Origin: Vicinamibacteria bacterium
GTDB taxonomy: Bacteria; Acidobacteriota; Vicinamibacteria; Marinacidobacterales; Marinacidobacteraceae
Length of the DNA: 64,000 nucleotides
Direction: 5' to 3'
NCBI GenBank assembly: GCA_963668695.2
Contig: CAXXLQ010000001.1
Span: 80,505 to 144,504 of the forward strand
The notes under the pieces: model-generated
Database searches by the model: none
What the model was told of the DNA's origin: nothing
Seen by the model: only the letters and a program-made list of their open reading frames with translations
Position numbers and translations under genes: made by a program
Part shown: positions 106-64,000 of the stretch, in pieces
Layout: each line of letters begins with the position of its first letter
How positions within the stretch are numbered: the first letter of the stretch is position 1

Positions 106-347
106 CTAGCAGCCTGTGGTGGAACCCGGGTGAGCGCCGAGGCCGGCCAGTCCTCCCGGTGGGGGCGAGGCCCAGTTCTCCCGGTGGGGCCAGTCCTCCC
201 GGTGGGGGCCCGGCTGACAAGGCGCGTGAGGGAGGAGTACCGGGTGTATTTCGACCGAAACGCAATGCAGAACGAAGCGAAGCGGAGTGGTTCAGCCGGG
301 ATGCATCGCCGGGCGAACGCCGCCTGGGTTCCACCACAGGCTGCTAG
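106..347. mobile_element. MITE-like modular repeat, copy 1 (inverted termini CAGCCTGTGGTGGAACC...GGTTCCACCACAGGCTG, CTAG at both ends)
   Basis: 17-bp terminal inverted repeat flanked by CTAG at 106-109 and 344-347. Internal modules recur at many loci, including three copies of the CCAGT(T/C)CTCCCGGTGGGG motif. Confidence 0.8.
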
Positions 348-358
348 GCGCGTTTAGC

Positions 359-1558
359 TCAGCGGAGCGTCGCCACTACCTTTCCGAGGGCCGTCAGGGA
401 GAGCTCCGACAGGTTCAGCTCGTCGCCGCCCACGTTCCGGAGCAGAATCACCGCGGCGTCGGTCCCGGGCTCGATCCAGGCAGCCCCCCGGTATCCGGCC
501 ACGCTGCCCCCGTGGCCATAGGCCGTGAAACTGTTGCCGTCGCTGTCGTCCGCGCGCCGCGCCATGAAGCCGAAGCCATAGCCACTCGAAAGATCTCCGG
601 TCGCGAACGCCTTGGTCAGGTTGTCCTGCCGGACATCTGCGGGAATGACCCCGTCGAAAGGGGTCCCGGGGGCTCCGGTCAGGAACCGCAGGAACACCCC
701 CAGGTCCTCGACCGTCGAATAGAGGGCGCCGTTCGGCACCTTGTAGCCGCGCCCCGCGTGTTCCCTCGCCGGCGTTTCGGCGTCGAGGCTTCCGTCGTCC
801 TCTACGGTGAGTCCTTCCGCGATGCGGTCCTCAAGACTCGGTGTGGGGAAAAAGGTGCTCGAGTCCATCCCGAGCGGAGCCAGGAGGTTCTCCGCCACGT
901 GCGCCATGAACGGCTCGCCGGCGGCCCGCTCCACGGCGGCGCCGAGCATCGCGTAGCCGATGTTCGAATACTGGTAGCGGGTACCGGGTTCGTACTCGAA
1001 GGAGGTCGCCTCGAGCGCCCGGAAGGCGGTATCGAGCCAATCTTCGGGGGCCCCCACCAGGTAGCGCGGGAGGTCCTGCGGTTCGCGGGCGAGCCCGCTG
1101 GTCATGGTTCCGAGCTGGAAAATGCTTGGTCCGGGGGTCCACGCATAGGGGTTGTCGACCTGCTCGAGTTCCGGCACCAGAATGGCGACCGGATCCCCCA
1201 GGCGCGCCTTCCCCTGGTGGACGAGCCGCAGCAGCGCCATGGCGGTGAACGGCTTCGTGATCGACCCGATGCGGAACAGGTGATCGGCCCGGGCAGGAAT
1301 CTCGCCCTCGGTGTCCGCGAACCCGAATCCTTCCGCGAACAGCATTTCTCCGCCGACGAAGACCCCGAAGGCGGCGCCGCCGCGTCCGTCATCCTCGATG
1401 ACGCGGCGGATCTGTTCGGCGGCCGCAGCGGCGGCCTCCGGCAGCGACTGCGCCACCTCCGGTTCGGATCCAGGCCCACAGGTGAGGGTGGCGATCCCGA
1501 GTAGCAGGGAAGCCGCCAGCGGGCGGCTCGTGAGCGGAAAACGAACGTGGTGACGCAT
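359..1558 (-). CDS. Serine hydrolase, beta-lactamase class C/AmpC-like family, probably a lipoprotein
   Basis: SxxK (FRIGSITK), YxN (YQYSNIGY) and HGG motifs; hydrophobic N-terminus ending LTC. Start chosen at MRHHV. Confidence 0.85.
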   Translation of the reverse strand: MRHHVRFPLTSRPLAASLLLGIATLTCGPGSEPEVAQSLPEAAAAAAEQIRRVIEDDGRGGAAFGVFVGGEMLFAEGFGFADTEGEIPARADHLFRIGSITKPFTAMALLRLVHQGKARLGDPVAILVPELEQVDNPYAWTPGPSIFQLGTMTSGLAREPQDLPRYLVGAPEDWLDTAFRALEATSFEYEPGTRYQYSNIGYAMLGAAVERAAGEPFMAHVAENLLAPLGMDSSTFFPTPSLEDRIAEGLTVEDDGSLDAETPAREHAGRGYKVPNGALYSTVEDLGVFLRFLTGAPGTPFDGVIPADVRQDNLTKAFATGDLSSGYGFGFMARRADDSDGNSFTAYGHGGSVAGYRGAAWIEPGTDAAVILLRNVGGDELNLSELSLTALGKVVATLR

Positions 1559-1678
1559 GTCGAAGGGAACGATACCCGGAGGCCGGGGACGGCGTATTGG
1601 GCGTTTCGCCCCAGGTGGGCTCGGTTGACAACGGGTCATTCAGGGAGCGGCGAAGGGAGTTCGCTGCGCTGGCGCGCA

Positions 1679-1707
1679 GCGATGCCGGTCTGGAGACCGG
1701 CGGTCCC
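1679..1707. repeat. REP-like palindrome GCGATGCCGGTCTGGAGACCGGCGGTCCC
   Basis: Hairpin GCCGGTCT/AGACCGGC. Related copies at about 40650-40678, 53244-53270, 56330-56340, 57572-57599 and 58658-58705. Confidence 0.7.
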
Positions 1708-1752: not shown

Positions 1753-2531
1753 TAGCAGCCTGTAGTGAAACCCGCGCGGCCCAGTTCTCCCGGTGGGGGC
1801 TCGGCCGGCGATCCATCCCGGCCAAACAACCGGCAGTGAAACCCACGCGGCCCAGTTCTCCCGGTGGGGGCTCGGCCGGCGATCCATCCCGGCCAAACAG
1901 CCGGTGATGAAACCCACGCGGCCCAGTTCTCCCGGTGGGGGCTCGGCCGGCGATCCATCCCGGCCAAACAGCCGGTGATGAAACCCGCGCGGCCCAGTTC
2001 TCCCGGTGGGGGCTCGGCCGGCGATCCATGACCGGCTGTTCACCGCGTCGCTACGCGCCGCTCATCGTTGCGTTTCGGTCGGAATACACTCGGTATTCCT
2101 CCCTCACGCGCCTTGTCAGCCGGGCCCCCACCGGGAGGACTGGCCCCACCGGGAGAACTGGGCCTCGCCCCCACCGGGAGAACTGGCCAGCCTCGGCGCT
2201 CACGTGGGTTCCACCACCGGCTGTTCACCGCGTCGCTACGCGCCGCTCATCGTTGCGTTTCGGTCGGAATACACCCGGTATTCCTTCCTCACGCGCCTTG
2301 TCAGCCGGGCGCCTCGCCCCCACCGGGAGAACTGGGCCTCGCCCCCACCGGGAGAACTGGCCGGCCTCGGCGCTCACGTGGGTTCCACCACCGGCTGTTC
2401 ACCGCGTCGCTACGCGCCGCTCATCGTTGCGTTTCGGTCGAAATACGCCAGGTATTCCTCCCTCACGCGCCTTGTCAGCCGGGCTCCTCGCCGGCCTCGG
2501 CGCTCACCCGGGCTCCACCACAGACTGCTAG
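1753..2531. mobile_element. Expanded MITE-like modular repeat with four tandem 71-bp units and three roughly 180-bp units
   Basis: Starts TAGCAGCCTGT and ends ACAGACTGCTAG; 71-bp units begin at about 1771, 1842, 1913 and 1984. Confidence 0.8.
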
Positions 2532-2542
2532 GATCGTCGCCG

Positions 2543-5500: not shown

Positions 5501-5665
5501 GCCCTCGGGCTGGAAGGGGAACTGGGCGTCATTGCGCCGGGGGCCCTCGCCGATCTGGTGCTGCTCGACGGCAATCCCCTCGATGACATCTCGAACCTCC
5601 GCCGCGTGCGCGCCGTGCTCGCAAACGGGCGGTTGGCGACGCTGGATCAGCTTCTCAGCTTCTGA
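2543..5665 (+). CDS. Secreted amidohydrolase with TolB/PD40 beta-propeller repeats
   Basis: Signal peptide MRRLSLPLLL; repeated WSPDG/SPDG motifs; C-terminal amidohydrolase motifs PGLIEMHTH, GTD and GALADLVLLDGNP. Confidence 0.88.
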   Translation: MRRLSLPLLLMGVAALASGQDTGERLVRVTEGTNFAVAASPDGERLVLDLQGTLWLLPATGGSAAALTDGLGDDRLPDFHPEGDRVAYQSFRGGTWDIWQLALPGGEPEQLTDSEFDDREPTWSPDGSRIAFSSDRSGSYDIWILDVATGDTSPVTSSLGNESQPAWTPDGDGVVFVATAEGDADSTLQWLSLAPDGDSSVIPGSAGNIAAPAVNPEGTQVVFRRLQYEGLTQMGTRFDIGTASEWVLVPLSEETDASDGSEGATAPRVLAGAGEDLFPFRPQWLDARTLLYTADGGLRRLDVGSSPSDAEAEPAASAETAAEVIPMSAELGVRRPPERRGRIRTDSEGALPVRGIIRPSVSPDGTRLLYAALGDIWTAPLDGSEAPLPVTRDTWLDTDPVWLPDGESVLFASDRGGTMDLWEKRLDSGPGAGLVQLTTRLGAEVSPAVTRDGSRIAWLDERGNLRVTSRDLDSGPDSEREEETVYTARRGAGMPSWSADGETVALASLVPYSSRYREGRNRIALIAATTGEARLLEEPAGSFGTRDSDGPVFSPDGGRLAFALGGGLAILRLSADGVPEGPPETVFEGPVDFPSWTPDGTAIVALSGASLLRIEADGSGSETIRLRHEFPLAARAGTLLIHDVGVLDVEAGEVLAGQDVLIEAGRIVSVTPVGEPPPEEMRVVNGEGATLIPGLIEMHTHPMTPAFGNRFGRAHLAYGVTSVRIPAAATYRVLEERESILAGLRVGPRIFLTGLTLDGSRIYYPGAAALSSGQGMDAALQLARELDYDVVKTYVRLDDESQRQAIRRAQRLGAFVTSHELYPAVRYGVNGLEHVKGTSRRGFSPKMTDLGRSYQDVRTLITESGVFFTPTMLIYGGWELALAREPDLVSSDRRIQAFPAWLASSLTAPREPSGNREAQISRNLALMRPMWETVSSIAAAGGRVIAGTDTPIVPYGLGLIVEIEQLAEAGLGPAGALRAATLTAAAALGLEGELGVIAPGALADLVLLDGNPLDDISNLRRVRAVLANGRLATLDQLLSF

Positions 5666-5821
5666 CCGTTAGCACAAGAAAGCCGTTGGGAGTGCACATA
5701 TTTTTGGGGTATCGCGTTGGATCCCTGTGATACATTGCCGTCCCTCGCGCACCGTGTTCTCCGGGACTTAGTGGCCCACCGCGCCACACCGCCTGGACCA
5801 AAGAAAGGAATCAGATCGAGC

Positions 5822-6097
5822 ATGACCAAGGTGGAACTCGTAACGACATTGTCAGAGTTTGCTGGAATCAGTCGTCGCGAAACCGCCGCGGTTCTCGACG
5901 GACTGCGTGACCTGGCGATTGAGGAACTCAAGGCTGGCAACGGCTTCATGCTTCCGGGAATCGCCAAGTTTTCGGTTGCGCACCGGGAAGCGAGAATGGG
6001 CCGCAACGTCCGCACGGGGGAAGCCATTGAGATCCCGGCGCGGAATGTGGTGAAATGTAAAGTTTCACGCCCCTTCCAATCCGACTCCTGCGACTAG
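5822..6097 (+). CDS. HU family DNA-binding protein
   Basis: MTKVEL...GIAKFSV...REARMGRNVRTGEAIEIPA, the HU/IHF signature. Confidence 0.9.
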   Translation: MTKVELVTTLSEFAGISRRETAAVLDGLRDLAIEELKAGNGFMLPGIAKFSVAHREARMGRNVRTGEAIEIPARNVVKCKVSRPFQSDSCD

Positions 6098-6279
6098 CAG
6101 CCCGTAGACAAAGTCGCGCGGCGTTCGACCGGCGATGCATCCCGGCTGAACCGCGCCGCTACGCGTCGCTCATCGTTGCGCTTGGTCGAAATACACTCGG
6201 TATTCCTCCCTCGCGCGCCTTGTCAGCCGGGCGCCTCACCGCTCTCGGCGCTCGTGCCACTTTATCCACGAGCTGCTAG
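6094..6279. mobile_element. Minimal MITE-like repeat lacking the 18-bp motif, beginning at the HU stop codon
   Basis: CTAG-CAGCCCGTAGACAAAGT...ACTTTATCCACGAGCTG-CTAG. Confidence 0.75.
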
Positions 6280-6424
6280 CCTCCCGTTCGGAGGCCCGCC
6301 GCCGCGGTGGACCCGGCGCCACTTTGCCGAGGTCCCGAAGCGCCCAATCCGAAGCGCCCAATCCGAAGCGCCCGGTTGCGCGGATTCCCCTGAAACGGAT
6401 ATGCCTTAGCGGTTCACTTCATCT

Positions 6425-8062
6425 GTGGATTGCCAAAGGGAGGGCTTCGATTCGTTGACCACCGGCCGGGCTGAGCGCGTATCCGGGGCGTCGCCCCCGC
6501 TTTATCCGGCGACCGACCTTTCGGGGTATCGGGACGATGCGGCGCTCTGGCGCAGCGTGCCGATGGAGTTGGTGCGGCGCCACCGTTTCGTTCCGCTGGC
6601 TGAAGACGGCGAGCGGCTCTCCATCGTGGTGGTGCCTCCGGTAGTCGAATCCGAGGTGGACCGGCTCGAGTTGCTGCTCCGGCGTCCGGTCGTCGTACAT
6701 GTGGGGGATCCGGCACAGATCGATGCGATCATCGACCGGAACACCAACTCCAGCTTCCTGCTGGACCGGGCGTCCGAGGATCTGCGGATCGAGAGGCTCG
6801 AACGCGGCGACGGAGGTTCCGGCCCGCCGGTCATTTCACTCGACACGCTGGAAGACGGTCAGACCGGTAGCCCCGTGGTCCGACTGGTGGATTCGCTGCT
6901 CGTGAACGCCATCGAGCGGCGCGCCACCGACATCCACATCGAGACCAAGTCCGGGGAGGTCGTTCTGAAGTATCGGGTGGACGGCATTCTCTATCCGGCG
7001 ATGGAGCCGGTGGACCGGGCGCACCATCAGACGATCGTGGCCCGGCTCAAGGTGATGGCGGAACTCGACGTCGCCGAGCGCCGGGTACCGCAGGATGGAC
7101 GGTTCCGGGCGGCGCTTTCCGGCGGAGGCGATCGCGATCCCCGCACCGTGGACTTCCGGGTTTCGGTCATGCCGAGCGTGCACGGTGAAGACGTCGTGAT
7201 CCGGGTGCTCGACAAGCGCAGTCTCGGGAGCCGCTTCGAGGCGCTTTCGCTGGAAGCGCTCGGGTTTTCGGGCCGGGAGCTCGGGCTCCTCCGCGAACAC
7301 GCGCGTCGACCCTTCGGGATGCTGCTCGCCACGGGCCCCACCGGAAGCGGCAAGACGACGACCCTCTACGCCGTGCTCTCCGAGATCGCGACCCCGGAGG
7401 AAAAGATCGTGACCGTCGAGGATCCCGTCGAGTACGAGATCGCGGGAGTCACCCAGGTTCCGGTGAACGAGAAGAAGGGCCTCACTTTCGCTCGCGGCCT
7501 ACGGTCCATCCTGCGGCACGACCCGGACACGATCATGGTGGGCGAGGTTCGCGATCCGGAGACGGCCTCGATCGCGGTCCAGGCAGCGCTGACCGGGCAT
7601 CTGGTCCTCACCACGGTGCACGCCAACCACGCGCTCGACGTGGTGGGGCGCTTCCTGCACATGGGGGCGGACCCTCACAATTTCGTTTCCGCGCTGAACT
7701 GCATCGTCGCTCAGCGGCTGGTCCGAGTGCTGTGCCCGGCCTGCCGCCAGCCGGGGCAACCCGATGCGGCCGAGCGGGAGGCTCTGATGGATCTCGCATC
7801 GCGACCGGACCGGCTCTTCCGGCCGCGGGGCTGCCGGAAATGCGACGGAGCGGGGTACCGGGGACGAACGGTGGTAGCCGAGATTCTGTCGCTCAGCTCT
7901 CGGGTTCGGGAACTCATCCTGGCGCGGCAGGGAGGTCCCGCGATCCGGGCGCAGGCCGAAGGGGAAGGGATGGTTTCGCTGCGCCGGAATGCTCTCGAAC
8001 TCGTAGCGCGCGGAGTGACGACTCTCTCCGAGGTCGATCGGGTAACGGCCCGTGAGACCTGA
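6425..8062 (+). CDS. GspE/PilB family secretion or pilus assembly ATPase
   Basis: ATDIHIE, PQDGRF, Walker A GPTGSGKTTT, TVEDPVEY, LRHDPDTIMVGEVRD, and tetracysteine CPAC...CRKC. Confidence 0.92.
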   Translation: MDCQREGFDSLTTGRAERVSGASPPLYPATDLSGYRDDAALWRSVPMELVRRHRFVPLAEDGERLSIVVVPPVVESEVDRLELLLRRPVVVHVGDPAQIDAIIDRNTNSSFLLDRASEDLRIERLERGDGGSGPPVISLDTLEDGQTGSPVVRLVDSLLVNAIERRATDIHIETKSGEVVLKYRVDGILYPAMEPVDRAHHQTIVARLKVMAELDVAERRVPQDGRFRAALSGGGDRDPRTVDFRVSVMPSVHGEDVVIRVLDKRSLGSRFEALSLEALGFSGRELGLLREHARRPFGMLLATGPTGSGKTTTLYAVLSEIATPEEKIVTVEDPVEYEIAGVTQVPVNEKKGLTFARGLRSILRHDPDTIMVGEVRDPETASIAVQAALTGHLVLTTVHANHALDVVGRFLHMGADPHNFVSALNCIVAQRLVRVLCPACRQPGQPDAAEREALMDLASRPDRLFRPRGCRKCDGAGYRGRTVVAEILSLSSRVRELILARQGGPAIRAQAEGEGMVSLRRNALELVARGVTTLSEVDRVTARET

Positions 8063-8089
8063 CACGCCTGCCGGACCGGGAGGTCACGG

Positions 8090-8932
8090 GTGACCCTTTC
8101 CAGCGACTCCCTCGCCCGGCCGGACCCACCGCCGCGGGCGGATCTCGCCGCGCGGCTCCTGGCCCGGGACCAACTCTCTCCCGATGCCCAGCTGCTCCGC
8201 TTCGAAAGTGAGGCGCCGCTTCGGGCTCTGCCGGGCCAGTTCACGATGGTGCGGGTCGAAGGCGGAGGGCTGCTGCGGCGGCCCTATTCCTTCTGCGACC
8301 TGCTGGAGGACGGTGCGTTCACCCTGCTGGTCAAGGAAGTCGGGATCGGGACCCGCGCGCTCATGAAGATGCCGGTCGGCGGAGCCATATCCAGTCTGGG
8401 CCCGCTCGGGACCACGTTCGATCCGCCCCCTCCGGACCTGACGCCGGTCATCGTCGCCGGCGGGGTGGGAATCGCGCCCTTCGTGCTCTTTTGCCGCCGC
8501 CTGGCCGAAACCGGGCGCCGCGGGATTGTGCTGCTCGGGGGCCGGCGTCGTCCCGACCTCTATCTCCGGGACACCTTCGAGGGTTTCGGGATGGACGTGC
8601 GGGTTGCGAGCGAGGACGGAAGCGCCGGCCACCATGGGCGCGTGACGGAGTTGCTCGACGCCGCCCTCGCGGACGCGGGTCGGCCGCAGCTCTACTCCTG
8701 TGGTCCGACCGGAATGCTGCTTCGCGTCGCGGAGGCCGGGGCCGACGCCGGCGTTCCTCATCAGGTCTCGATCGAGCGCCGGATGGGCTGCGGGATGGGA
8801 TGCTGTTTGGGCTGCGTCGTCTGGGCCCGGCCGCCTTCCGGCGGCCCGGAGGAATACCTTCGGAGTTGCACCGAAGGACCGGTGTTCGACGCCGGAACAA
8901 TCGCTTGGGACCAGGATCCCCACCCTCTCTAG
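8090..8932 (+). CDS. pyrK: Dihydroorotate dehydrogenase electron transfer subunit
   Basis: PGQF, LRRPYS, AGGVGIAP, SCGP, ERRMGCGMGCCLGC, and CTEGPVF. Confidence 0.92.
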   Translation: MTLSSDSLARPDPPPRADLAARLLARDQLSPDAQLLRFESEAPLRALPGQFTMVRVEGGGLLRRPYSFCDLLEDGAFTLLVKEVGIGTRALMKMPVGGAISSLGPLGTTFDPPPPDLTPVIVAGGVGIAPFVLFCRRLAETGRRGIVLLGGRRRPDLYLRDTFEGFGMDVRVASEDGSAGHHGRVTELLDAALADAGRPQLYSCGPTGMLLRVAEAGADAGVPHQVSIERRMGCGMGCCLGCVVWARPPSGGPEEYLRSCTEGPVFDAGTIAWDQDPHPL

Positions 8933-9606
8933 CAGCCCATGGAAGAAGCACCCCGGATGGCCGCCGCCGCGCGAGACGCGCGAAATCTACGGATTTCTCC
9001 GAATGCGGAGCGCTTTTCCCTCGGGCGAGCAGCCTGTGGACAAAGTCACGCGGCATTCCCGAGCCAAGAGGGATGGGAGCCGGGTATCCCCGTCCCCCAT
9101 CCCTCTCGCTCCGGGGTCTCCGCGGTGCTGGCGCCCCGCTCCGGAAGCCCGAGCCAGAAGGGATGGGGGTCGGGTGGCCCCGCCCCCCGTCCCTTCCGCT
9201 CCGGGGTCTCCGCGGTGCTTGCGCCCCGCTCCGGAAGCCCGAGCCAGAAGGGATGGGGGTCGGGTGGCCCCGCCCCCCGTCCCTTCCGCTCCGGGGTCTC
9301 CGCGGTGCTGGCGCCCCGCTCCGGAAGCCCGAGCCAGAAGGGATGGGGGTCGGGTGGCCCCGCCCCCCGTCCCTTCCGCTCCGGGGTCTCCGCGGTGCTG
9401 GCGCCCCGCTCCGGAAGCGAGCGGCGATGCACCCCGACTGGCCCCCACCGGGAGAACTGGCCGCCCCGCTTCGCGTGGCTCATCGTTGCGCTTCGGTCGA
9501 AATACACTCGGGCCAGTTCTCCCGGTGGGGGCTCCTCCCTCGCGCGCCTTGTCAGCCGGGCGCCTCACCACTCTCGGTGCTCACGTCACTTTGTTTACAG
9601 GCTGCC
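8929..9606. mobile_element. Composite repeat between pyrK and pyrD: MITE ends enclosing four 90-bp tandem units (9061-9418)
   Basis: Starts at CTAG (the pyrK stop); inner CAGCCTGTGGACAAAGT...ACTTTGTTTACAGGCTG; 90-bp unit GAGCCAGAAGGGATGGGGGTC...CGGAAGCCC. Confidence 0.8.
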
Positions 9607-9735
9607 TGCGGCGCGAATCGCTACGCGATTCACACCACGGTTTTTCGTGGGCAGGGGAAACCCCTCCCTATACCCCGCCCCTGCGGCGCTCCGCGCCGCT
9701 GGTTCACGATGGGCGACTTTCGCCACCGGTCTTCG

Positions 9736-11444: not shown

Positions 11445-11571
11445 CAGGCGTCTGGTGCGATCCGAAATAGCCAGCGCGGACCGAAAATCGCAGGTCTAAC
11501 GTTGACTCGCAGAGAGCGTTCCGATAGCCTCCCAAGTGGCTGTTATTTCGCTGTCCCCGGAGGTTTTCCTT

Positions 11572-12138: not shown

Positions 12139-12152
12139 CGACTTCCGCTTCC

Positions 12153-13849: not shown

Positions 13850-14010
13850 TAACAGCCGGTGGTGGAACCCGCGTGAGCGCCGAGGCCGGCCAGTTCTCCC
13901 GGTGGGGGCGAGGCCCAGTTCTCCCGGTGGGGGTCCGGCTGACAAGGCGCGTGAGGGAGGAGCCCCCACCGGGAGAACTGGGCCGTGTGGGTTCCACTAC
14001 CGGCTGTTGA
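13850..14010. mobile_element. MITE-like modular repeat
   Basis: TAACAGCCGGTGGTGGAACC...GGTTCCACTACCGGCTGTT, with three copies of the 18-bp motif. Confidence 0.75.
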
Positions 14011-22526: not shown

Positions 22527-22781
22527 CAGCCCGTGGCAAAACCCACGCGGCCCAGTTCTCCCGGTGGGGGCTCGGCTGGCGATCCATCCCGCCCGAACCA
22601 CTCCGCTTCGCTCCGTTCTTCGTTGCGTTTCGGTCGGAATACACCCGGGCCAGTTCTCCCGGTGGGGGCTCCTCCCTCACGCGCCTTGTCGGCCGGGCCC
22701 CCACCGGGAGGACTGGCCCCACCGGGAGAACTGGGCCTCACCGACCTCGGCGCTCACGTGGGTTTCACCACAGGCTGCTAG
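22523..22781. mobile_element. MITE-like modular repeat starting at the ihfB stop codon
   Basis: CTAG-CAGCCCGTGG...CCACAGGCTG-CTAG, with four copies of the 18-bp motif. Confidence 0.8.
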
Positions 22782-22900: not shown

Positions 22901-23160
22901 TGAACAGCCCGTGAATGAAGTCAAGTGGCCCGGTTCTCCCGGTGGGGGCTCGGCCGGCGATGCATCCCGGCTGAACCGCCCCCCCACCGGGAGAACTGGC
23001 GCTTCGCGTCGCTCATCGTTGCGCTTCAGTCGAAATACGCTGGGTATTCCTCCTTCGCGCGCCCTGTCAGCCGGGCCCCCACCGGGAGGACTGGCCCCAC
23101 CGGGAGAACTGGGCCTCCCCGGTCTCGGCCCTCACATCACTCCATCCACGGGCTGTTGAG
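22901..23160. mobile_element. MITE-like modular repeat directly upstream of icmF
   Basis: AACAGCCCGTG...CACGGGCTGTT termini and the shared internal modules. Confidence 0.75.
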
Positions 23161-31167: not shown

Positions 31168-31331
31168 GCCGCGAGACTCACACCACCACCCTCGCCCATT
31201 GCCCGGATCCGTCCGGGGACGGCGAAGCGAACCCCGTGTTTCCTCCCGGTGGGGGCTCCTCCCTCGCCGTTGCCAGCGGGACGCCTCGCCCCCACCGGGA
31301 GAACTGGCCGCTGATGTCACATTGTCCACCC

Positions 31332-40185: not shown

Positions 40186-41542
40186 CGCACGCTGGGCGCG
40201 GTTGCAGAAAGCTCGGCCCGGCCCGCTACTCGTTTAGTGCGTCAATGTTCCCGCGCAGGCTGAAAACTGCCTGCAAGACGCCATCCGCGCGGGGGGCCGC
40301 GCCGGGGGCCAGCGCAGCGGATCGATTCCCGGAAACGCAAGGGAGTCAACGGGTTTCGGGTGCGACGGTGGCGGACCTCCTTTCACACTTTCCCCCCGGA
40401 CACGCTGGCGTCAAACCCTGCGGGTTCGCCGCCGTGAGTTTTTCCTCGTTTGGCGCACCGCAGTCTCACGCCGCCATCCATCCGGCAGGTCGAACGAACC
40501 CCGGAGGGGGTCGTCCGGCGCTTCGCGCCGGGCTTCCGAAGTGCGGCGAGATCCGCGCGGAGACCCCGGAGCAGGAGGGATTGGGGTCGGGGGCGCGACG
40601 CGCAGCGAGATCGCGCATCGCCGACCGCGAAGAAGCGCGGGGACGGCTTGGAACGCCGGTTTCCGACCGGCATCGCGCGGGAGCGCGAAACCAGCGCCGA
40701 TGACGCTGCGCTGTGCCAACGTGAGGGCCGCACCACCTTTGAGTCCCGGAGGGCGCGACCGATCGCTGCTCCCGCTACCCGGGACGCGCCGTTTTCATGA
40801 CGCGCGAGGGTGTGGAGGAGGACCCGATCGTGAGGGTTTCTCCCGGTGGGGGCCGGCACCGCCAGCCGGAGGCTGGTGAAGGTTGTGCTACCGAACGCCG
40901 GGGGGTTTACAATCCGAAATGAACCCGAGTGGTCCACTGCGCTCCGGCTTATGGAACCGAACGGGAGTCACCACTGCCGGGTGGGACGCGCCTCCCGCGA
41001 GCGGCGCCAATCGGCGCCGGGCGGGAAGCCCGAGCCTGGCACGCGACGCCCACCTACGACATCGTAGGACGGAACCAGAGGACCGCCGGGTTCACCTTCG
41101 GGTCGAGCGGTCCGGAAGGGGGGCTGCCCAGTTCGGATAGTGATGCGTAGTCGGTTTGCTACCGGTTGCGCCCCCCTTCCGAACCGCCCGGCGCTTCGCG
41201 CCGGCCTTCCGAAGTGCGGCGGGAGCCGCACGGAGACCCCGGAGCAGGAGGGGCTGGGGTCGGGAGACCCGACTCCCAGCCGCTCCTGGCTCGGGAATCG
41301 AAACTTCCTTGCCCGCTTCGGGCGGGCTACGGCAAGTTCCGATTGGTCGTAGTCAATTTGTGAAAGGGGGAGGTGCCCCCCTTTCACACTTTCCCCCCTC
41401 GGGTCGAGCGGTCAGGGAGGGGGGGTGTCAGGCGCCAGAAAAGAGGGGAGCCCTCCGCGTTTCGTCGCGCTCGCGCGCGACGAGGCCGGTCGGAGGCCGG
41501 AGGCCCCTATAGGGCGCTATCCGGCGGGTGAGCGGAGAGTCG

Positions 41543-42723: not shown

Positions 42724-42946
42724 CTAGCAGCCTGTGGATAAAGTGGCGTGAGCGCCGAGAGTGGCGAGGCGCCCGGCTGACAAGGCGCGCGAGGGAGGAG
42801 CCCCCACCGGGAGAACTGGCCCGAGTGTATTTCGACCGAAGCGCAACGATGAGCGAGGCGAAGCGCCAGTTCTCCCGGTGGGGGGGCGGTTCAGCCGGGA
42901 TGGATCGCCGGTCGAACGCCGCGTGACTTTGTTCACAGGCTGCTAG
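42724..42946. mobile_element. MITE-like modular repeat
   Basis: CTAG-CAGCCTGTGGATAAAGT...ACTTTGTTCACAGGCTG-CTAG. Confidence 0.8.
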
Positions 42947-42990
42947 GCTGCCGCCCACTGTTGCGCGACGCGAACAAACGGGCAGGTCCA

Positions 42991-53342: not shown

Positions 53343-53380
53343 TTGCAATAACTCAGCATTACCGTATATTTACGGCAATG
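53343..53380 (+). promoter_or_regulatory. Sigma70-type promoter with an overlapping inverted-repeat operator for the AbiE operon
   Basis: TTGCAA-N16-TATATT; inverted repeat CATTACCGTA-tatt-TACGGCAATG covers the -10 box and the ATG. Confidence 0.7.
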
Positions 53381-56308: not shown

Positions 56309-56389
56309 GCGCCGAGGATCCGTCCGGCAGGGACCGCCGGCCAGTTCTCCCGGTGGACTCTCCTGGAGAATGCAAGGAGGAAGGGAGGG

Positions 56390-56576
56390 TTAACAGCCTG
56401 TGGTGGAACCCGCGTGAGCGCCGAGGCCGGTGAGGCGCCCGGCTGACAAGGCGCGTGAGGGAGGAATACCGGGTGTATTTCGACCGAAACGCAACGCAGA
56501 ACGCAGCGAAGCGGAGTGGTTCAGCCGGGATGGATCGCCGGTTGAACGCCGCGTGGGTTTCGCCACAGGCTGTTAA
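56390..56576. mobile_element. MITE-like repeat nested in the IS110 right end, TTAA at both ends
   Basis: TTAA-CAGCCTGTGG...CCACAGGCTG-TTAA. Confidence 0.8.
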
Positions 56577-56577
56577 G

Positions 56578-57273
56578 TCAGGCGGCGGATTTTGGGCTCC
56601 TGGCGGCGAAGTCCGGGTCGAAGAAGGTGCGGTGTCGCGCCATCGCGCATAACACCCGGAACTGCTGGTCGGCGATGGCGCGATGCCGCCGGGCCGTCGT
56701 CTTCCCCGCGTCCTTCAGCTTCCGGCTGTATGCCTTCACGTCCTCGTCCCAGCGCAACACCCCGCGTGCCAGGAGGTAGGCGGCCTGCTGCAGCGAGTAG
56801 GGCACCGCACGCCGCATCCGGGCCGTGTCGCGCTCTCCGGACTGCACCCGGACGGGGGCCGCCCCGGAGGCCGCTCGCAACCGGCCGTGGTCCCCGGCGC
56901 ACACCGCCTCGAATCCCCAGGCGAACAGCCGCGCCAGCGCCTTGTCTCCCAACCCCTTCCGAGACCGCAGGATGGTGACCGGATCCGGAGCCGTCGCGCC
57001 CGCGCCGCCTCCCACCGCTTCCGTCTCCGACAGCGCATCCAGGAACTGCGTCATCTGCTTCTCCGCACGCGCGATCTCCGCGTTCACAACCTCCAGCAGG
57101 GCCAACGCCGTCCGAATCGTCTCCACCGCCGCGGCGGTGGCCCCGGGCGCCACCGTCAGCGCCTCCTCACGAAACAACGCAACCACCCGGTCCGCGCTGA
57201 TCCGGGTCACCCCGTAGTGCCGCAGCAGCTTCTCCCAGGTGGAGCACCGCACCTTCCGCGCCGTCGCCGGTGT
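56578..57273 (-). pseudogene. IS110 transposase, C-terminal half only (RuvC-like DEDD domain deleted)
   Basis: ILRSRKGLG...SGAAPVRVQSG...RAIAD...AM....FDP matches the IS110 C-terminal domain. There is no N-terminal GxD motif or credible start. Confidence 0.82.
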
Positions 57274-57291
57274 CGAGCGGTCCGCCTTGCC

Positions 57292-57478
57292 GCGATGGCA
57301 GTCAAGCCCTATATTGGTGCTCGATCGGCACAACTCTCCACAGGGTGTCCCATCACGGCCATCCGTCGGGGTACTGGTCCACCACAGGTGCTTGCGGCAC
57401 CGGGGCCTCTTGGTACTCCCGGCGGATCGGCCAACCGAAGTTGATGAAGTAGGAGGCGAAACCGCCTCCTACACAACG
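57292..57478 (-). ncRNA. Putative IS110 bridge RNA
   Basis: 5' hairpin 57449-57472; stem/internal loop/hairpin 57357-57432 (target loop); second loop 57292-57356 (donor loop). Loop sequences match the element's own target and donor junctions. Confidence 0.75.
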
Positions 57479-57681
57479 CCCGTGATCCTATAGGGGGCCT
57501 GAAGACCGGCACTGCCAGCCGAAGGCTGGTGAAAGGCGGAGTGCTGAACGGCGGCAAGCGCGGGGAGTGAGGGGACCGCCGACCTCCGGTCGGCATCGCG
57601 GCCCGCAGGGCCGCGAAACGCGCAGCGGTGATGGGCTTGGTCCGACCGGGCGGCTTCCCGTAGGGGCGCACCCGTCCGCCG

Positions 57682-57994
57682 GAGGAAGAACCACGAGCTG
57701 CCCCGGGTGGCGATCACGTTCGAGTGCTTGCCGATCCATCCCAGGCCAGCCCGTTCCGCGAACGCCTTCTCAAGCAGCGGTCCGTGATCCACGAGGGTCG
57801 GGATGCGCCGGCGCGCGCCCGGCGAGCGCTCGGGCAGCAGGCCGGCTTTGATGGCGCGGGCTTGGGCGAACGCCGCAAGGGCGCGGAGCTTCGAATCCAG
57901 CACCCGGTGGTAGTCCTCGCGAGAACCCGAGACGGAATCCCTCTTCCCGGATCGCGCCCCGCAGCTCTGCCCGCTGTCTCCCGTCGTCGGCCAC
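57682..57994 (-). pseudogene. queG: Epoxyqueuosine reductase remnant
   Basis: N-terminal IREEGFRLGFS is joined out of frame to EDYHRVL...VDHGPLLEKAFAERAGLGWIGKHSNVI...SWFFL, then truncated. Confidence 0.78.
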
Positions 57995-58046
57995 GGCGAC
58001 AGCCTACCGGAGCCCCCCGAGATTTCGAATCAGGGTTTGTCGAATC

Positions 58047-58638
58047 GCTAGAGCGACATGTTCGCCCGGCAGATCCGGCTACTGCGACATGTTGGCGTCC
58101 CGCTGATCCCGGTAGTGCGACATGTTCGCGCGGCAGATCCGGCTAGTGCGACATGTTCGCGTTCCGCCGACCCTGCTATTGCGACATGTTCGCGCGGCAG
58201 ATCCGGCTAGTGCGACATGTTGGCGTCCTGCCGGTCCTGCTAGGCCGACATGTTCGCCCGGCGGAACCGGCTAGTGCGACATGTTGGCGTCCCGCCGATC
58301 CCGCTAGTGCGACATGTACATCCGGCGGAACCGGCTAGTGCGACATGTTGGCGTCCCGCCGATCCCGCTAGTGCGACATGTACATCCGGCGGAACCGGCT
58401 AGTGCGACATGTTGGCGTCCCGCCGATCCCGCTAGTGCGACATGTTCGCCCGGCAGATCCGGCTAGTGCGACATGTTCGCGTTCCGCCGATCCCGCTAGT
58501 GCGACATGTTCGCCCGGCAGATCCGGCTAGTGCGACATGTTGGCGTCCCGCCGATCCCGCTAGTGCGACATGTATATCCGGCGGAACCGGCTAGTGCGAC
58601 ATGTTGGCGTCCCGCCAGTCCTGCTACTGCGACCTGAG
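58047..58638. repeat. Tandem array of 18 units alternating 31 and 33 bp (9 x 64 bp) plus a degenerate 19th core; core GCTAGTGCGACATGT
   Basis: Cores at 58047, 58078, 58111, 58142, 58175, 58206, 58239, 58270, 58303 and so on to 58590, then 58623. Confidence 0.92.
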
Positions 58639-58810
58639 TTTCGCGGCCCGGCGGGCCGCGATGCCGGTCTGGACTCCCCCACCGGGAGAACTGGCCGGCG
58701 GTCCCTGGCCGATGCGCCGCCGTCCCTGGCCGGCGGTCCCTGGTCGGCGCGTCGCCCTCCCTGACGCCGCCTGCCACCGGATAGAGTCTCGCCCCCGAGG
58801 AATCATGCCC

Positions 58811-60017: not shown

Positions 60018-60248
60018 ATGAGCCAGCCGCGCGAACCGGTCGTGTCTGCGGGCCATCTCGCCGGGCTCTGCGAGACCTGCTGCCACGCCCGGATCGTGGC
60101 GTCGCGCCGCACCCGTTTCACCCTTTGCGAGCGTTCGTTCTCGGACGCGCGCTATCCCCGCTACCCGCGCCTGCCGGTCCTGACCTGTTCTGGTTTCGTC
60201 GGTGCGTCCGGACGCGAGGGTCCCGAAACAGCCGGTTGTGAAACCTAG
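60018..60248 (+). CDS. Small Cys-rich hypothetical protein
   Basis: G-rich RBS; GLCETCCH...FTLCERS..D.RYPRYPRLPVLTCSGF. Confidence 0.65.
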   Translation: MSQPREPVVSAGHLAGLCETCCHARIVASRRTRFTLCERSFSDARYPRYPRLPVLTCSGFVGASGREGPETAGCET

Positions 60249-60785
60249 GCGGCGTTCGGCCGGCGATCCATCCCGGCGAAACAGCCTGTAATGAAACCCG
60301 CGCGGCGTTCGGCCGGCGATCCATCCCGGCGAAACAGCCTGTAATGAAACTCGCGCGGCGTTCGACCGGCGATCCATCCCGGCGAAACAGCCTGTAATGA
60401 AACTCGCGCGGCGTTCGACCGGCGATCCATCCCGGCGAAACAGCTGAAACTCGCGCGGCGTTCGACCGGCGATCCATCCCGGCTGAACCGCGCGTCGCGT
60501 CGCTCAGCGTTGCGTTGCGTTTCGGTCGAAATACACTCGGTATTCCTCCCTCACGCGCCTTGTCAGCCGGACCCCCACCGGGAGAACTGGGCCTCGCCGG
60601 CCTCGGCGCTCACGCGGGTTCCACCACCGGCTGTTGACCGCGTCGCTGCGTGCCGCTCATCGTTGCGTTTCGGTCGAAATACACCCGGTATTCCTTCCTC
60701 ACGCGCCTTGTCAGCCGGACCCCCACCGGGAGAACTGGGCCTCGCCGGCCTCGGCGCTCACCCGGGTTCCACCACCGGCTGTTAG
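60227..60785. mobile_element. MITE-like modular repeat with tandem 53-bp units
   Basis: Unit GCGGCGTTCG(G/A)CCGGCGATCCATCCCGGCGAAACAGCCTGTAATGAAAC(C/T)CGC repeated 4-5 times; ends CCACCGGCTGTTAG. Confidence 0.8.
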
Positions 60786-60947
60786 CGCCTGGCCGTTAGC
60801 CCCCGCCACCCGGCTGGAGTGCCCCAGCGAGCGGAGCCGGCGCGCCGGGGCGAGCCCGCCGGTCCTTGTTCCCTCGGTTCTGTGTGCTTTGTCAGGAGAA
60901 TCGGCTATACTACACATCAGATTTAATGAGTATGGAGTAGATAGATC

Positions 60948-63569
60948 ATGTCTCTTTCCGCTACCGAACGTGCTGGCGCTGCACTGTCGCGGGCTGCAAG
61001 CCTCGCAGGAGGGCGCCCAAACCCGGAAACCACTCCCGAGCACCTGCTCGCCGCCTTGCTCGACGATGCGCCCGATGGGCTTGCTCTCCGGCTCCTTCGC
61101 CGGCTGGACGTCGAACCCTCCGCTCTGGGTCGCAACCTGGACACGGCCCTTGGTGCGCTGCCGGTGCAGCACTACGCAGCCGAGGGCTCGCCTTCCGCAT
61201 CCCAGGGGCTCGCCAAGGTGATTCACACCGCGTCGGAGGAGGCGCGAAGGCTCGGGGACGAGTTCCTGAGCGTGGAACATCTCCTCCTCGCTCTGGTCTT
61301 GCAGAAGTCGGCGGCCAGCCATGCTCTCCGCGCCGTCGGAGTGGACCGGAAGAGGCTCGAAGGAGCGATCAAGGCGGTGCGCGGTCCCGCACGCGCCTCA
61401 AGCCCCAACCCCGAGAGCGCCTACGAGCCACTCCAGAAATACGGGCGGGACCTGACGTCCCTCGCCCGTGCCGACAAACTGGACCCGGTCATCGGTCGTG
61501 ACGATGAGATCCGGCGGGTCATGCAGATCCTGTCTCGGCGTACCAAGAACAACCCGGTGCTGCTCGGGGAACCGGGAGTCGGCAAGACGGCCATCGCGGA
61601 GGGGCTGGCGCTCCGGATCGTGAAGGGTGACGTACCCGAAGGGCTCCGCGACCGGCAGGTCGTGGCGCTCGATATGGGGGCGCTCATCGCCGGTGCGAAG
61701 TTCCGGGGCGAGTTCGAAGAGCGGCTCAGGGCGGTGCTTGGCGCCGTGCAGGAGTCGGACGGAAGGGTCATTCTCTTCGTCGACGAGTTGCATACCGTCG
61801 TCGGCGCCGGCCGAACCGACGGCGCGATGGATGCCTCCAACCTGCTGAAGCCGGCGCTCGCCCGGGGGGACCTGCACTGCATCGGGGCGACCACCCTGGA
61901 CGAATACCGCCAGTACATCGAAAAGGATGCCGCGCTCGAACGGCGGTTCCAGACCGTGGTGGTTGATGAGCCCTCCGTCCCGGACACCGTGACCATCCTG
62001 CGCGGCCTCAAGGAGCGCTACGAGGTCCACCACGGCGTCCGGATCCAGGACGGCGCGCTCCTGGCCGCGGCGTCCATGTCCAGCCGTTACATCTCCGGCC
62101 GCTTCCTGCCCGACAAGGCCATCGATCTGGTGGACGAGGCGGGCGCCCGCCTGCGGACCGAGATGGACAGTGTTCCCACCAGTCTCGACGAGGTGGAGCG
62201 GAGGCTCCTGTCGCTTCAGATCGAGCGTGAGGCGCTGAAGAAGGAAAAGGACGACGCTTCGCGCAAGCGACTCACGGAACTCGAACGGCGGATCGCCGAC
62301 CTCGAAGAGGAGGCGCGAGCCCTCCGCACCCAGTGGCAGGGCGAGAAAGCGCAGCTCCTTGGGGTGCGGAGGCTTCGCGAGCGGATCGAAGAGGCGAACC
62401 TCCAGATGGAGCGGGCTGAACGCGAGCAGGACCTCGGCCGGGCGGCCGAACTCCGGTACGGGACCATCGAGGAACTGAAACGCGAACTGACGGCCGCGGA
62501 GACGCGGCTCGGTGGGCAGGACGGTCGTCTCCTTCGTGAGGAGGTGGACGCCTCCGACGTAGCCTCGGTGGTTGCGCGGTCGACGGGTATCCCGGTGGAC
62601 CGGCTGCTCGAAGGCGAGCGGGAAAAACTGCTGCGGCTGGGAGACCTGCTCCACCGCCGGGTCATCGGACAGGACGAAGGGGTACGGGCGGTGGCCGACG
62701 CGGTGGTCCGCGCTCGCGCCGGCGTCCAGGATCCGGATCGGCCGCTCGGCGCCTTCCTGTTCGCCGGCCCCACCGGGGTGGGGAAGACCGAACTCGCCCG
62801 CGCGCTCGCCGCCGAACTCTTCGATGACGAGCACGCCGTGGTGCGCCTGGACATGTCCGAGTACACCGAGAAGCACTCGGTGTCCCGGCTGACCGGGGCG
62901 CCCCCCGGATATGTCGGCTTCGAAGAGGGTGGCCAGTTGACGGAGGCGGTGCGCCGCCGGCCGTTCGCGGTTGTCCTGCTGGATGAAATCGAAAAGGCCC
63001 ACCCACAGGTGCGGACCGTGCTGCTTCAGGTGCTCGACGACGGCCGGCTCACCGACTCGCACGGCCGGCTGGTCAACTTCCGCAACACGGTACTCATCAT
63101 GACGTCGAACGTCGGGAGTGAGCGGGTGCTGGCGCTTGCCGAGGCGGGACGCGGATATGACGAGATGAAGCGCGAAGTGATTTCGGAGCTTCGGCGCGAG
63201 TTCCCGCCCGAGTTCCTGAACCGGGTGGACGAAACCGTCGTGTTCCGGAGCCTCACCCGGGACCAGGTGACCGAAATCGTGAACCTCCAGCTGGACCGGC
63301 TCCGTGAACGGGTCCGCGAGCAAGACCTCACGCTCGAGGTGACCGAGGACGCCCTCAGAGTCCTTGCCGCCGAGGGGTACGACCCGCTCTATGGCGCCCG
63401 TCCCGTTCGGCGGGTCATCCAGCACCGGGTCGAGACACCGGTCGCGCGGATGATCGTTGGCGGGGTGCTTCCGCCCGGAGCCTTGGTCGAGGTGCGGAGC
63501 GATGCCGGCGGAACGATTGAGGTCGCTCCGCGCGGGGTGGCGGACAGAGCCGAGCTGGTTCCGGCCTGA
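60948..63569 (+). CDS. clpB: ATP-dependent chaperone ClpB
   Basis: [21 protein letters not shown], coiled-coil middle domain, [20 protein letters not shown]. Confidence 0.97.
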
Positions 63570-63580
63570 GGGGGCTGCCG

Positions 63581-64000
63581 GCAGCCGGTGGTGGAACCCA
63601 CGCGGCCCAGTTCTCCCGGTGGGGGCTCGCCCGGCGATCCATCCCGGCGAAACAGCCTGTAATGAAACTCGCGCGGCCCAGTTCTCCCGGTGGGGGCTCG
63701 ACCGGCGATCCATCCCGGCGAAACAGCCTGTAATGAAACTCGCGCGGCCCAGTTCTCCCGGTGGGGGCTCGCCCGGCGATCCATCCCGGCCAAACAACCG
63801 GTAGTGAAACCCACGCGGCCCAGTTCTCCCGGTGGGGGCTCGGCCGGCGATCCATCCCGGCTGAACCGCGTCGCTGCGCGCCGCTCATCGTTGCGTTTCG
63901 GTCGGAGTACACCCGGGCCAGTTCTCCCGGTGGGGGCTCCTCCCTCACGCGCCTTGTCAGCCGGACCCCCACCGGGAGAACTGGGCCTCGCCCCCACCGG
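63581..64000. mobile_element. MITE-like modular repeat with four 71-bp units, running off the window end
   Basis: GCAGCCGGTGGTGGAACC start; the same units as 1757-2040. Confidence 0.8.

Follow-up and report, generated by a model that had tools for sequence, protein, structure and literature searches.

A dispersed 18-nucleotide motif of a sponge-type acidobacterial genome as a very probable attachment site of IS110-family elements

The dRS3 repeat of Neisseria is a 20-bp inverted repeat present in hundreds of copies, organised into arrays of neisserial intergenic mosaic elements (NIME) and serving as an integration site for IS110-like (Piv/Irg) recombinases. Insertion sequences (ISs) of the IS110 family that target repetitive extragenic palindromic (REP) sequences were reportedly described by Tobes and Pareja in 2006, and Elhai and colleagues are said to have reported, in 2008 (Genome Res 18:1484), the small dispersed repeats (SDRs) SDR1-8 of the Nostocaceae, which measure 21-27 nt, lie nested in mini-transposons, were judged mobile from filled and empty sites and, in the case of SDR4-6, have a conserved secondary structure. 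In those portions of the cited sources on which this and later statements draw, the SDRs of Nostocaceae are briefly described (PMC3116915, PMC5861425), no repeat resembling the SDRs was detected in HIP1-rich cyanobacteria outside Nostocaceae (PMC5861425), and the REP-targeting IS110-family elements employing a bridge RNA or seekRNA include IS621 in Escherichia coli and ISPpu9 and ISPpu10 in Pseudomonas putida (PMC1525189, PMC11187229, PMC12288879, 10.64898/2026.03.19.712850). The native right guide of IS621 is 4 bp long (10.64898/2026.08.31.748434), and the left and right guides of the bridge RNA pair with the bottom and top strands respectively, the core being included (PMC11208160). The present report concerns an 18-nt motif, CCCCACCGGGAGAACTGG (hereafter M), which recurs throughout a 64,000-nt stretch (hereafter the window) of contig C1 of a Vicinamibacteria bacterium genome (G000; its relatives are denoted by further G numbers), and which is very probably the attachment site of bridge-RNA-type IS110 elements. 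Among the matches listed for IS110 targets, bridge RNAs and small mobile repeats, the portions of the literature available contained no account of M or of a micro-insertion serving as target. What is new is the combination of an IS110 target that itself behaves as an 18-nt micro-insertion, crosses genera, persists in approximately 1,500 free copies and is used by two lineages at two different cores.

With up to two mismatches allowed, 38 matches to M were located in the window on both strands (28 of them exact), as against a mean of 0.01 in 100 shuffled windows, none of which reached 38; the initial annotation, made by eye, had put the number at about 40 in both orientations. The assembly of G000, a sponge-type acidobacterial genome (4 contigs, 4.10 Mb, 67% GC, 91.7% complete), holds 1,631 copies, 1,288 of them exact, evenly split between the strands, and the commonest variant, ending in GGACTGG, accounts for 156. 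In a logo of all these copies the 18 nt are nearly invariant; a G (88%) and a C (86%) stand before them, C/G, a C (92%) and a further C (72%) stand after them, and beyond these flanking bases the information collapses. Gene calls were made with our own codon-model caller (3,160 genes covering 81% of the genome and 77% of the window), and 1,601 of the 1,631 copies (~98%) fall outside them. The earlier impression that no copy lies in coding sequence therefore holds for the window (0 of 38) and not for the genome, where 30 copies lie within gene calls, most being artefacts at the ends of open reading frames (ORFs) and one a true in-frame insertion. The copies are spread evenly along the chromosome (37-127 per 200 kb, strands balanced), by which replichore polarity or clustering of M was rejected. 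M forms a stem of 3-4 bp at most when read directly for palindromes, with none of at least 5 bp in either strand, and itself lacks the terminal inverted repeats (TIRs) and target-site duplication that its main carrier possesses. A tRNA 3'-end origin was rejected, none of the 57 tRNAs and one tmRNA found by ARAGORN lying within fewer than three mismatches of TCCCGGTGGGGGC, and an Rfam scan of the window returned three tRNAs only. Carriage of M by phage was likewise rejected, on a single match in a viral contig collection, in an unrelated context.

The G000 assembly is redundant, with a contamination estimate of 9.3% for which co-assembled strains are probably the cause. Contig C1 is a reverse copy of C4:304-421 kb (99.3-99.7% identical), C3 matches C4:3505-3538 kb, and the head of C4 (C4:13-148 kb) matches its tail (C4:3783-3914 kb). 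Removal of these haplotigs left 1,528 copies in the non-redundant genome.

Evidence for M as an attachment site derives from an IS110 lineage labelled here IS-M and from its miniature derivatives, denoted E; a second lineage is labelled IS-W. The target halves to the left and right of a core are abbreviated LT and RT, and the two ends of the element that meet the core LD (left) and RD (right). On this anatomy M comprises LT CCCCACCGGGAG, the core AA and RT CTGG. A half-motif search revealed E with a left end in which ...CCCCACCGGGAGAA is followed directly by ACCC(T/C)CATGATCGGG... (also written ACCC(T/C)CATGATCGGGTCC...) and a right end in which ...TTTTCACAGCAA is followed by CTGG. Left ends of E occur at 19 places in G000 (16 without haplotig copies), and E sits at two positions of a carrier repeat described below (S1 and S2) and in REP loops, all of which are sites of M. 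For seven of the 24 left junctions a right junction lies no more than 700 nt away, and E accordingly measures 150-380 bp. Full-length IS-M of ~1.78 kb with the same ends as E was found in G001, G004 and G008, with a further copy in contig C13 of G001; its junctions in G001 and G004 read gc, CCCCACCGGGAGAA, ATGCCCATGATCGG on the left and GTTACACAGGAA, CTGG, gcc on the right, and its ORF (L245) matches DEDD_Tnp_IS110 (PF01548, 1.4e-25) and Transposase_20 (PF02371, 3.7e-19). IS-M has neither TIR nor target duplication and shows the same short core at both junctions (left ...GGGAG-AA-ACCC/ATGC..., right ...CAGC/CAGG-AA-CTGG), and its flanks, once joined, are exactly M. Since the full-length IS-M has the same ends as E, M can be read as the left flank plus AA plus the right flank with the element removed.

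Besides 1,528 free copies of M, the non-redundant G000 has 24 left and 10 right junctions and lacks RD-AA-LD altogether; chromosomal RD-AA-LD junctions occur at three places in 16 congeners. Two of these stand immediately to the left of both IS-M copies of G008, beside non-identical right-end (RE)-like segments, and this arrangement on the RD side resembles the "RD-only half-match" insertions reported for IS621 (10.64898/2026.08.31.748434). The tandem E units of G010 are duplications of REP and E as a whole and were of no help in deciding between M as a target and M as a footprint. Three such 383-bp units, each a REP hairpin with E, follow one another at G010:C1:648700-650250 (L260) and are succeeded by an empty REP, GCCGGTCTGGAGACTGGCG, with a loop resembling the AA-core region of M.

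Further support comes from the left non-coding end of IS-M, where a stem GGACG...GTCCC encloses an internal loop. In all three copies compared, the 3' side of this loop is a sense repeat of the left junction of the same copy over 8 of 8 nt: GGAGAAAT for GGGAG.AA.AT in the copy G001a, CAGCAAAC for ACAGC.AA.AC in G008, and CCCTAAAC for GCCCT.AA.AC in G001:C13. The three copies with a matching left guide have different left flanks, the guide covarying with the target. The 5' side, GCCAGTT in G008 or GCCAGATT in G001a, is the reverse complement of AA.CTGGC, and the polarity of the loop agrees with the rules for the left and right target guides (LTG/RTG) given in the available part of PMC11208160. 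Simple pattern look-ups for guides returned nothing above chance, for which reason the evidence for a guide is that of the aligned loop.

In having DEDD and Transposase_20 domains, no TIR, no target-site duplication and the same dinucleotide at both junctions, IS-M is like IS621, ISPpu9 and ISPpu10. With bridge-RNA IS110 elements in general, as portrayed in the excerpts at hand, it shares a long left non-coding end and a loop in which the left target is repeated in sense and, in two of the three copies compared, the right target in antisense, and with IS621 a multi-copy intergenic repeat as target and a very short right half (4 nt). Unlike IS621, however, IS-M has AA rather than CT as its core, and M differs from the REP targets of IS621, ISPpu9 and ISPpu10 in being non-palindromic and in being itself an insertion in REP loops, in a transposon-like carrier and in one gene. 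The system is further set apart from known IS110 elements by its ~1,500 free as against 24 occupied targets, and by two lineages with two cores in one 18-mer.

The second lineage is present in the window as an IS110-family relic on the minus strand (56359..58045), in which ORF 56578-57249 matches Transposase_20 only (PF02371, 1.6e-4) and a carrier repeat is nested (56390-56580). The relic is 82-83% identical at the DNA level to three copies in G004, and its left end has been lost in a 64-bp tandem array. The left flank of IS-W reads ...gaaggCCCCC followed by TATAGG in both aligned G004 copies, and the right junction reads ...GGAGAGTCC followed by ACCGGGAGAACTGGccggcggtccctg in three of three cases, namely two G004 copies and the window relic, in which a remnant of M (56341..56358, minus strand), GTCC followed by ACCGGGAGAACTGG and then the 3' arm of a REP, forms the right flank, as it does in the two G004 copies. 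From these junctions it follows that IS-W enters M at the C-run, within a REP loop. The joined flanks of IS-M and E, the guide-like loop that copies those flanks and the entry of IS-W at the same motif together support the initial annotation in its suggestion of a "landing pad", and its remark that an 18-mer is too short to encode its own mobility is one with which we agree. The 64-bp array itself (9.2 units, ...CTAGTGCGACATGTTCGC..., 58046-58633) lies between the relic and a REP hairpin with M in its loop (58658..58705, plus strand; M at 58677-58694), and related arrays are present in G001. The only intact IS110 of G000 (C4:482375-483625, 417 aa; locus C4:482051-483900, L114) occupies a second type of REP, reading GCCGACCGG, AGGTC...AGGTC, CGGCG with AGGTC at both ends, and its left end also recurs by itself elsewhere, in copies of ~100 nt.

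The abundance of M is a separate matter from its use, and its copy number comes, almost certainly, from the amplification of its carriers. The 1,528 non-redundant copies fall into 166 flank contexts, of which the seven largest hold 1,093; cluster counts are given because a regular-expression context classifier left 382 of the 1,528 as "other". All seven are positions inside a miniature inverted-repeat transposable element (MITE) of ~183 bp flanked by TA, these positions being numbered S1-S6. The MITE has the TIR (T)A(G/A)CAGCCTGTGG and a TA duplication, and the 1,609 ends counted correspond to ~800 copies. Successive length classes of the MITE are 18 bp apart (~183, 201, 219, 237, 255), and its minus strand, taken as RNA, folds into a rod (-101.5 kcal/mol, z = -6.4). 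When 359 oriented copies were aligned to the empty consensus, M was located at position 27 (S1, 150 copies), 59 (S4, 45), 101-109 (S2, 160), 136-138 (S3a, 98) and 143-148 (S3b, 123), with rare sites besides; 95 of the 359 had none of the five sites filled, and of the 32 possible fill combinations 30 were observed. The remaining contexts, most "singletons" included, are mostly REP hairpin loops in which GCCGGTCTGAAGGC is followed by M and CCGGCG. Roughly three quarters or more of the G000 copies are passengers at five or six fixed positions of the MITE. The idea that M inserts in mirror image on opposite arms of the MITE rod was considered and rejected: S3a lies opposite S6 and S3b near S1, and co-filling is weak (odds ratios 1.6 for S1-S3b, 1.35 for S2-S4 and 0.5 for S3a-S3b). 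No transposase was found between paired TIRs that might mark an autonomous parent of the MITE. IS630-family (DDE_3) elements with the TIR TAGTGTGGTGTCCCGCAAAT lie at the TA of MITE ends at G000:C4:667100-668200 and in the G001 orthologue of window positions 8930-9765; their TIRs differ from that of the MITE and have only TGTGGTG in common with it, on account of which they are possible mobilisers of the MITE.

That M arrives as a discrete insertion is apparent from pairs of filled and empty alleles, which differ by 18 or 19 bp at at least ten non-homologous positions. Five such pairs within the window had been pointed out previously, and all of them are in the sequence. A 53-bp tandem array without M (60224-60483, plus strand, 5 units) has its filled counterparts in two 71-bp arrays, at 1756-2029 (minus strand, 3.9 units, M at 1781, 1852, 1923 and 1994) and 63601-63861 (M at 63607, 63678, 63749 and 63820, minus strand), as delimited by Tandem Repeats Finder (TRF), the 71-bp unit being the 53-bp unit plus one M. 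The form ...cggtattcctccct at 60531 answers to cgggCCAG..GGGGgctcctccct at 9513 and 22650, position 2302 to 60564, position 6146 to 22971, and the empty REP hairpin GCCGGTCTGGAGACCGGC (1679-1707, plus strand, loop without M) to the filled hairpin at 58658-58705. The earlier figure of a net gain of 18-19 bp stands as to its size; the gain is not always clean, 1-3 flanking target bases often being replaced on filling, as in CG to GC+M or ATA to GC+M+C. Clean-empty forms were recorded for S1 (33 copies) and S4 (10) and for none of S2, S3b and the REP context REP1, which implies a mixture of clean 18-19-nt insertions and 1-3-base replacements. TRF also recovered 18-bp doublets at 172-207, 2126-2161, 22699-22743 and 23077-23112, of which the second and third had been noted previously. 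M is like dRS3 in flanking array units, which are of 50-150 bp in the case of dRS3 and of 71 bp here, and in being a recombinase target; it is unlike dRS3 in that the latter is an inverted repeat, and of phage integration there is no sign at M.

One event in a new place lies outside the window, in a resistance-nodulation-division (RND) transporter gene (G000:C1:38077-41196), where an exact M is inserted in frame as six codons (PHRENW). G000 and G001, its closest relative, have the filled site, and 12 other congeners lack the 18 bp, the event converting gagcccgCGcggg into gagcccgGC+M+cggg. Turnover is also visible between strains, across which the initial annotation had proposed to align filled and empty alleles, and between species. 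Haplotigs compared for this purpose are 97.6-99.7% identical, and their alignments contain 30 gaps of at least 6 bp, which on realignment included three cases at S3a of an 18-bp unit cleanly present in one haplotig and missing from the other, two of a filled versus empty S2 (ATA versus GC+M+C), two of an M doublet versus a singlet, and a 15-bp partial deletion inside one M. Orthologous MITEs differ in fill between species, and deletions between two direct copies of M recur. From the changes themselves it is inferred that the fill of sites alters through recombination, gene conversion and slippage involving the 1,500-plus copies. Public sequencing runs (n = 23) were used as contigs, which break at every MITE and are thus uninformative on M alleles and circles.

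M is also markedly uniform. With sites located by their flanks alone in order to avoid ascertainment bias, 229 of 235 18-nt inserts at S1 and 262 of 279 at S2 were exact M, and rare-variant bases numbered 6 of 4,230 in M against 221 of 14,100 in the outer MITE flanks at S1, and 18 of 5,022 against 311 of 16,740 at S2. Rare variants are hence 5-11 times fewer in M than in the adjacent MITE sequence; Fisher P values for this comparison are overstated, because the copies of M are kin.

Of 61 relatives, 22 contain the exact 18-mer: all 15 congeners do, as do 6 of the 12 remaining family members and none of the 33 genomes from outside the family. Among complete or nearly complete genomes the exact counts are 1,288 (G000 itself), 631, 564, 525, 220 (in another genus), 83, 45, 36, 10, 6 and 1. 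A collection scan found M in Candidatus Marinacidobacterium, Vicinamibacteria and Acidobacteria metagenome-assembled genomes, with single matches in unrelated taxa. Diverged copies of this MITE in other genera also harbour M, placed elsewhere within the repeat and even inverted, from which it follows that the presence of M in the MITE predates the split of the genera. Junctions of the element exceed free M in G010, G006, G005 and G012 (right junctions 35, 76, 19 and 14 versus exact M 6, 28, 8 and 6).

Taken as a whole, the explanation which we consider on balance probable combines an attachment site, the amplification of carriers and rare IS110-assisted origin of new sites. IS-M and E would recombine at the AA core of M, so that a site would be either free (M) or split into two element junctions; IS-W would use the same M at the C-run; the MITE and REP carriers would multiply M; and truly new sites, such as that in the RND gene, would arise rarely, when an M-flanked element inserts by relaxed (half-match or shifted-boundary) recombination and is then lost by recombination at the AA cores. 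The reading of M as an attachment site accounts for its use and fits the short 4-nt right half; by itself it does not explain M at ten or more unrelated positions. For these, the seeding of new sites with the assistance of IS110 is the route we prefer among those considered, albeit tentatively and at well below even chances. That E and M occupy the same sites counts in its favour, as do the excess of element junctions over free M in G010, G006, G005 and G012 and, in the available parts of the sources, reports of flexible boundaries, partial circles and reintegration (10.64898/2026.08.14.744561) and copy-out pathways (10.1101/2025.10.25.684509). The stronger proposition, in which IS110 recombinases propagate their own 18-nt attachment site by moving with the target halves and leaving by core recombination, with MITEs and REPs amplifying the pad, is more doubtful still.

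Several observations weigh against IS110-assisted seeding. M is older and wider in distribution than IS-M and E, an old micro-repeat found across the family, whereas left junctions are restricted to the genus (13 of 28 family genomes), and G009, G018 and G019 possess M with no AA site occupied. G009, G018, G019 and G025 contain 83, 220, 36 and 10 copies of M and 0, 1, 2 and 0 sites in which LT-AA is followed by a base other than C; G019 and G025 lack any IS110 domain (PF01548), and G025, of another genus, carries a variant, CCCTACCGGGAGAACCGG, at MITE S1 and S2, by which the motif in the MITE is shown to be older than the genus-restricted element. The initial annotation had suggested testing whether the abundance of M co-occurs with IS110, and the numbers do not track one another: G000 has one IS110 and 1,288 copies of M, G014 ten and 45. 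No full-length IS-M is present in G000, yet strain-level polymorphism of M is seen there. The replacement of 1-3 target bases is more suggestive of templated repair of the patch type than of precise recombination at a core. As for the guide, the right-guide check is out of register in G001:C13, where only CCTTT matches AA.AGG; a donor-binding loop was not found in IS-M; single-sequence folds of both non-coding ends were no better than shuffles (z +1.2 and +1.3); Rfam returned nothing credible on the IS-M loci; and the matched guide does not extend to the leftmost 6 nt of M (CCCCAC), such that the 18-mer as one unit is not accounted for.

The alternative that survives best supposes that M is passive: rare patch repair by microhomology or template switching would copy M together with 1-3 flanking bases, and the rest would be amplification, ectopic conversion and slippage, conversion keeping the copies uniform. 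The net gains of 18 or 19 bp with replaced target bases, often to the donor's usual 5' GC and 3' C, are what such repair would leave; the polymorphic site C1:44540 has six single-nucleotide polymorphisms (SNPs) in 150 nt within a haplotig pair diverged by ~0.4%, a conversion signature; and the doublet-singlet changes, the 15-bp partial deletion between short direct repeats and the deletions between direct copies of M also accord with it. Template switching should, however, give ragged boundaries, whereas the logo falls off abruptly at either edge; in C3 the S2 events have no flanking SNPs over ~90 nt; no usable microhomology was seen by eye at the RND site; and the 5-11-fold deficit of rare variants is unexplained unless conversion is very frequent. 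We regard a purely passive M as possible, on a par with the self-propagating pad and short of the IS110-assisted route.

Somewhat less likely is that M is an independently mobile element of very small size, an SDR-like repeat copied by machinery acting in trans, against whose abundant sequence the IS110 guides evolved, as those of other IS110 elements did against REPs. Several features would be expected of such a repeat: its presence in genera and genomes without an AA-core element or any IS110 domain, its sharp 18-20-nt logo boundaries, its occurrence in both orientations at almost identical MITE positions in different genera, the variant subfamily of G025, its far greater uniformity than the host MITE, and its nesting in a mini-transposon, as is said of the SDRs. 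M is like the SDRs also in its length of ~20 nt, its nesting in other repeats and its filled and empty orthologous or paralogous sites; it is unlike them in occurring in Acidobacteriota, in measuring 18-20 nt, in having no shared hairpin and in having an identified user in the IS110 guides. No candidate enzyme presents itself, G000 lacking both RVT_1 and Y1_Tnp and G004 lacking Y1_Tnp, and a reverse transcriptase route was rejected on the absence of RVT_1 from G000. There is no convincing hairpin, and since only a few tens of independent contexts are involved, dedicated machinery for M is not required.

Maintenance of M by host selection, as a protein-binding site or DNA-uptake sequence with the insertions being incidental, is improbable. 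The strict conservation of M across five genera with few rare variants, its even chromosomal spread without strand polarity and the competence-type genes of the window (ComEC and a PilB-like ATPase) speak for it, but selection does not create 18-bp insertions, ~98% of the copies are non-coding, and a range of 6 to 1,288 copies among complete congeners is hard to square with an essential site; for an uptake sequence in particular, 1,601 of 1,631 copies outside gene calls and the arrival of M as an insertion are adverse. More improbable again is a REP-type element spread by a REP-associated tyrosine transposase (RAYT, a Y1 transposase). M resembles REPs, bacterial interspersed mosaic elements (BIMEs) and REPINs in its hundreds to thousands of intergenic copies, its mosaics, its inverted pairs (140 pairs 49 bp apart) and its use as an IS target, and weak partial Y1_Tnp matches exist in 13 of 15 congeners, but M is not palindromic, Y1_Tnp (PF01797) is absent from G000 and G004, two of the M-richest genomes, and separate, truly palindromic REPs coexist and carry M within their loops. 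An artefact of the assembly or library, which the redundant assembly and its contamination estimate might suggest and which the initial annotation had named as a finding that would refute its reading, deserves virtually no credence, because the exact 18-mer recurs in 22 of 61 relatives assembled separately, single-contig genomes included, embedded in conserved orthologous contexts.

The remaining copies in the window illustrate the same carriers. Three copies on the minus strand lie in the right part of a MITE at 147..207 (147-164, the GGACTGG variant; 172-189; and 190-207, a variant), the last two forming the doublet at 172-207. On the plus strand, a doublet at S3a (2126-2161) is followed by a single copy at S3b (2169-2186), together spanning 2126..2186, and two copies 25 bp apart occupy S3b at 2318..2360 with the TRF unit gcctcgc+M. 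The reference empty MITE (6098..6282, plus strand, ~183 bp, TA-flanked), the minus-strand RNA of which is a long rod, has an orthologue in G004 with M and a deletion between S1 and S2, and G001 has no MITE there. A contig of run X11 joins 6093 straight to 6276 and skips the MITE of 6094-6275, indicating a strain without it, and the RNA-library contig X15 covers 5615-6146, starting in the HU gene and entering the MITE by 50 nt. One MITE carries M at S5 (9443-9460, plus) and S2 (9513-9530, minus), hence 9443..9530; in the orthologues of 9400-9600 the filled sites are S5 and an S3a doublet in G004, and S5 and a degenerate S3b in G008, as against S5 and S2 in G000. The copies at 13890 (minus), 13915 (minus) and 13964 (plus), within 13890..13981, belong to a MITE without the segment between S2 and S1; G001 keeps both copies and the DNA between them, and the haplotig on C4 adds M at ~13926.

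MITE A (22552..22734) carries M at S1 (22552, minus), S2 (22650, minus) and an S3a doublet (22699/22717, plus; TRF span 22699-22743), and, compared over 22524-22790, it differs from its G001 orthologue at three sites. MITE B (22930..23112) carries it at S1 (22930, minus, one mismatch), S4 (22982, plus) and an S3a doublet (23077/23095, plus), with the same fill in G004 and an S1-S2 deletion in G001. A single copy (31290..31307, plus) lies in a truncated MITE remnant absent from G001 and G004, and a G000-specific MITE inserted at TA (42730..42950) has M at S2 (42802, plus) and S4 (42866, minus), the empty site gcacTAgactgcc being found at its position in G001, G004 and G008. Two single copies at S3a, 60573-60590 and 60721-60738 (60573..60738, plus), have the flank AC, and the second 71-bp array is followed by M at S2 (63918, minus) and S3a (63967, plus), up to 63984.

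A partial E with the left end only occupies 40640..40851, where the minus strand reads gtgccggc, CCCCACCGGGAGAA, ACCCTCACGATCGGGTCC... and the left half of M abuts the IS left end. It is held in a 2.3-kb segment next to a tRNA-Leu (39227-41496) that is unmatched in the syntenic regions of G001, G004 and G008, whose ORFs have no Pfam match and which has hairpin repeats gtgaaagggggg..cccccctttcacactttcccccc at its bounds. A second repeat family, with 81-90-bp tandem units rich in GGGATGGGGGTCGGG / CCCCGCCCCCCGTCCC, is present at 9058-9418, 16759-16917 and 32116-32302; one of its arrays is nested in a MITE, and the unit number varies between species. An AbiEii-type nucleotidyltransferase toxin domain (type IV toxin-antitoxin) is encoded at 54019-54819, with an unannotated 214-aa ORF just upstream (53378-54019).

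IS110 bridge recombinases are under development as programmable genome-writing tools, and the origin and upkeep of their natural targets have been little studied. G000 offers a natural case of target supply and occupancy, with ~1,500 free and 24 occupied sites and relatives ranging from 6 to 1,288 copies, alongside a case of guide evolution, in which the left guide covaries with three left flanks, and one of relaxed recombination, in the variant inserted at an RD-AA site in G008. The findings also bear on the older question of how repeats too small to have any coding capacity turn up as insertions in unrelated places; as M is linked to a defined recombinase system, the spread of a micro-repeat becomes directly testable, and self-seeding, if true, would explain for the first time the spread of very small "mobile" repeats.

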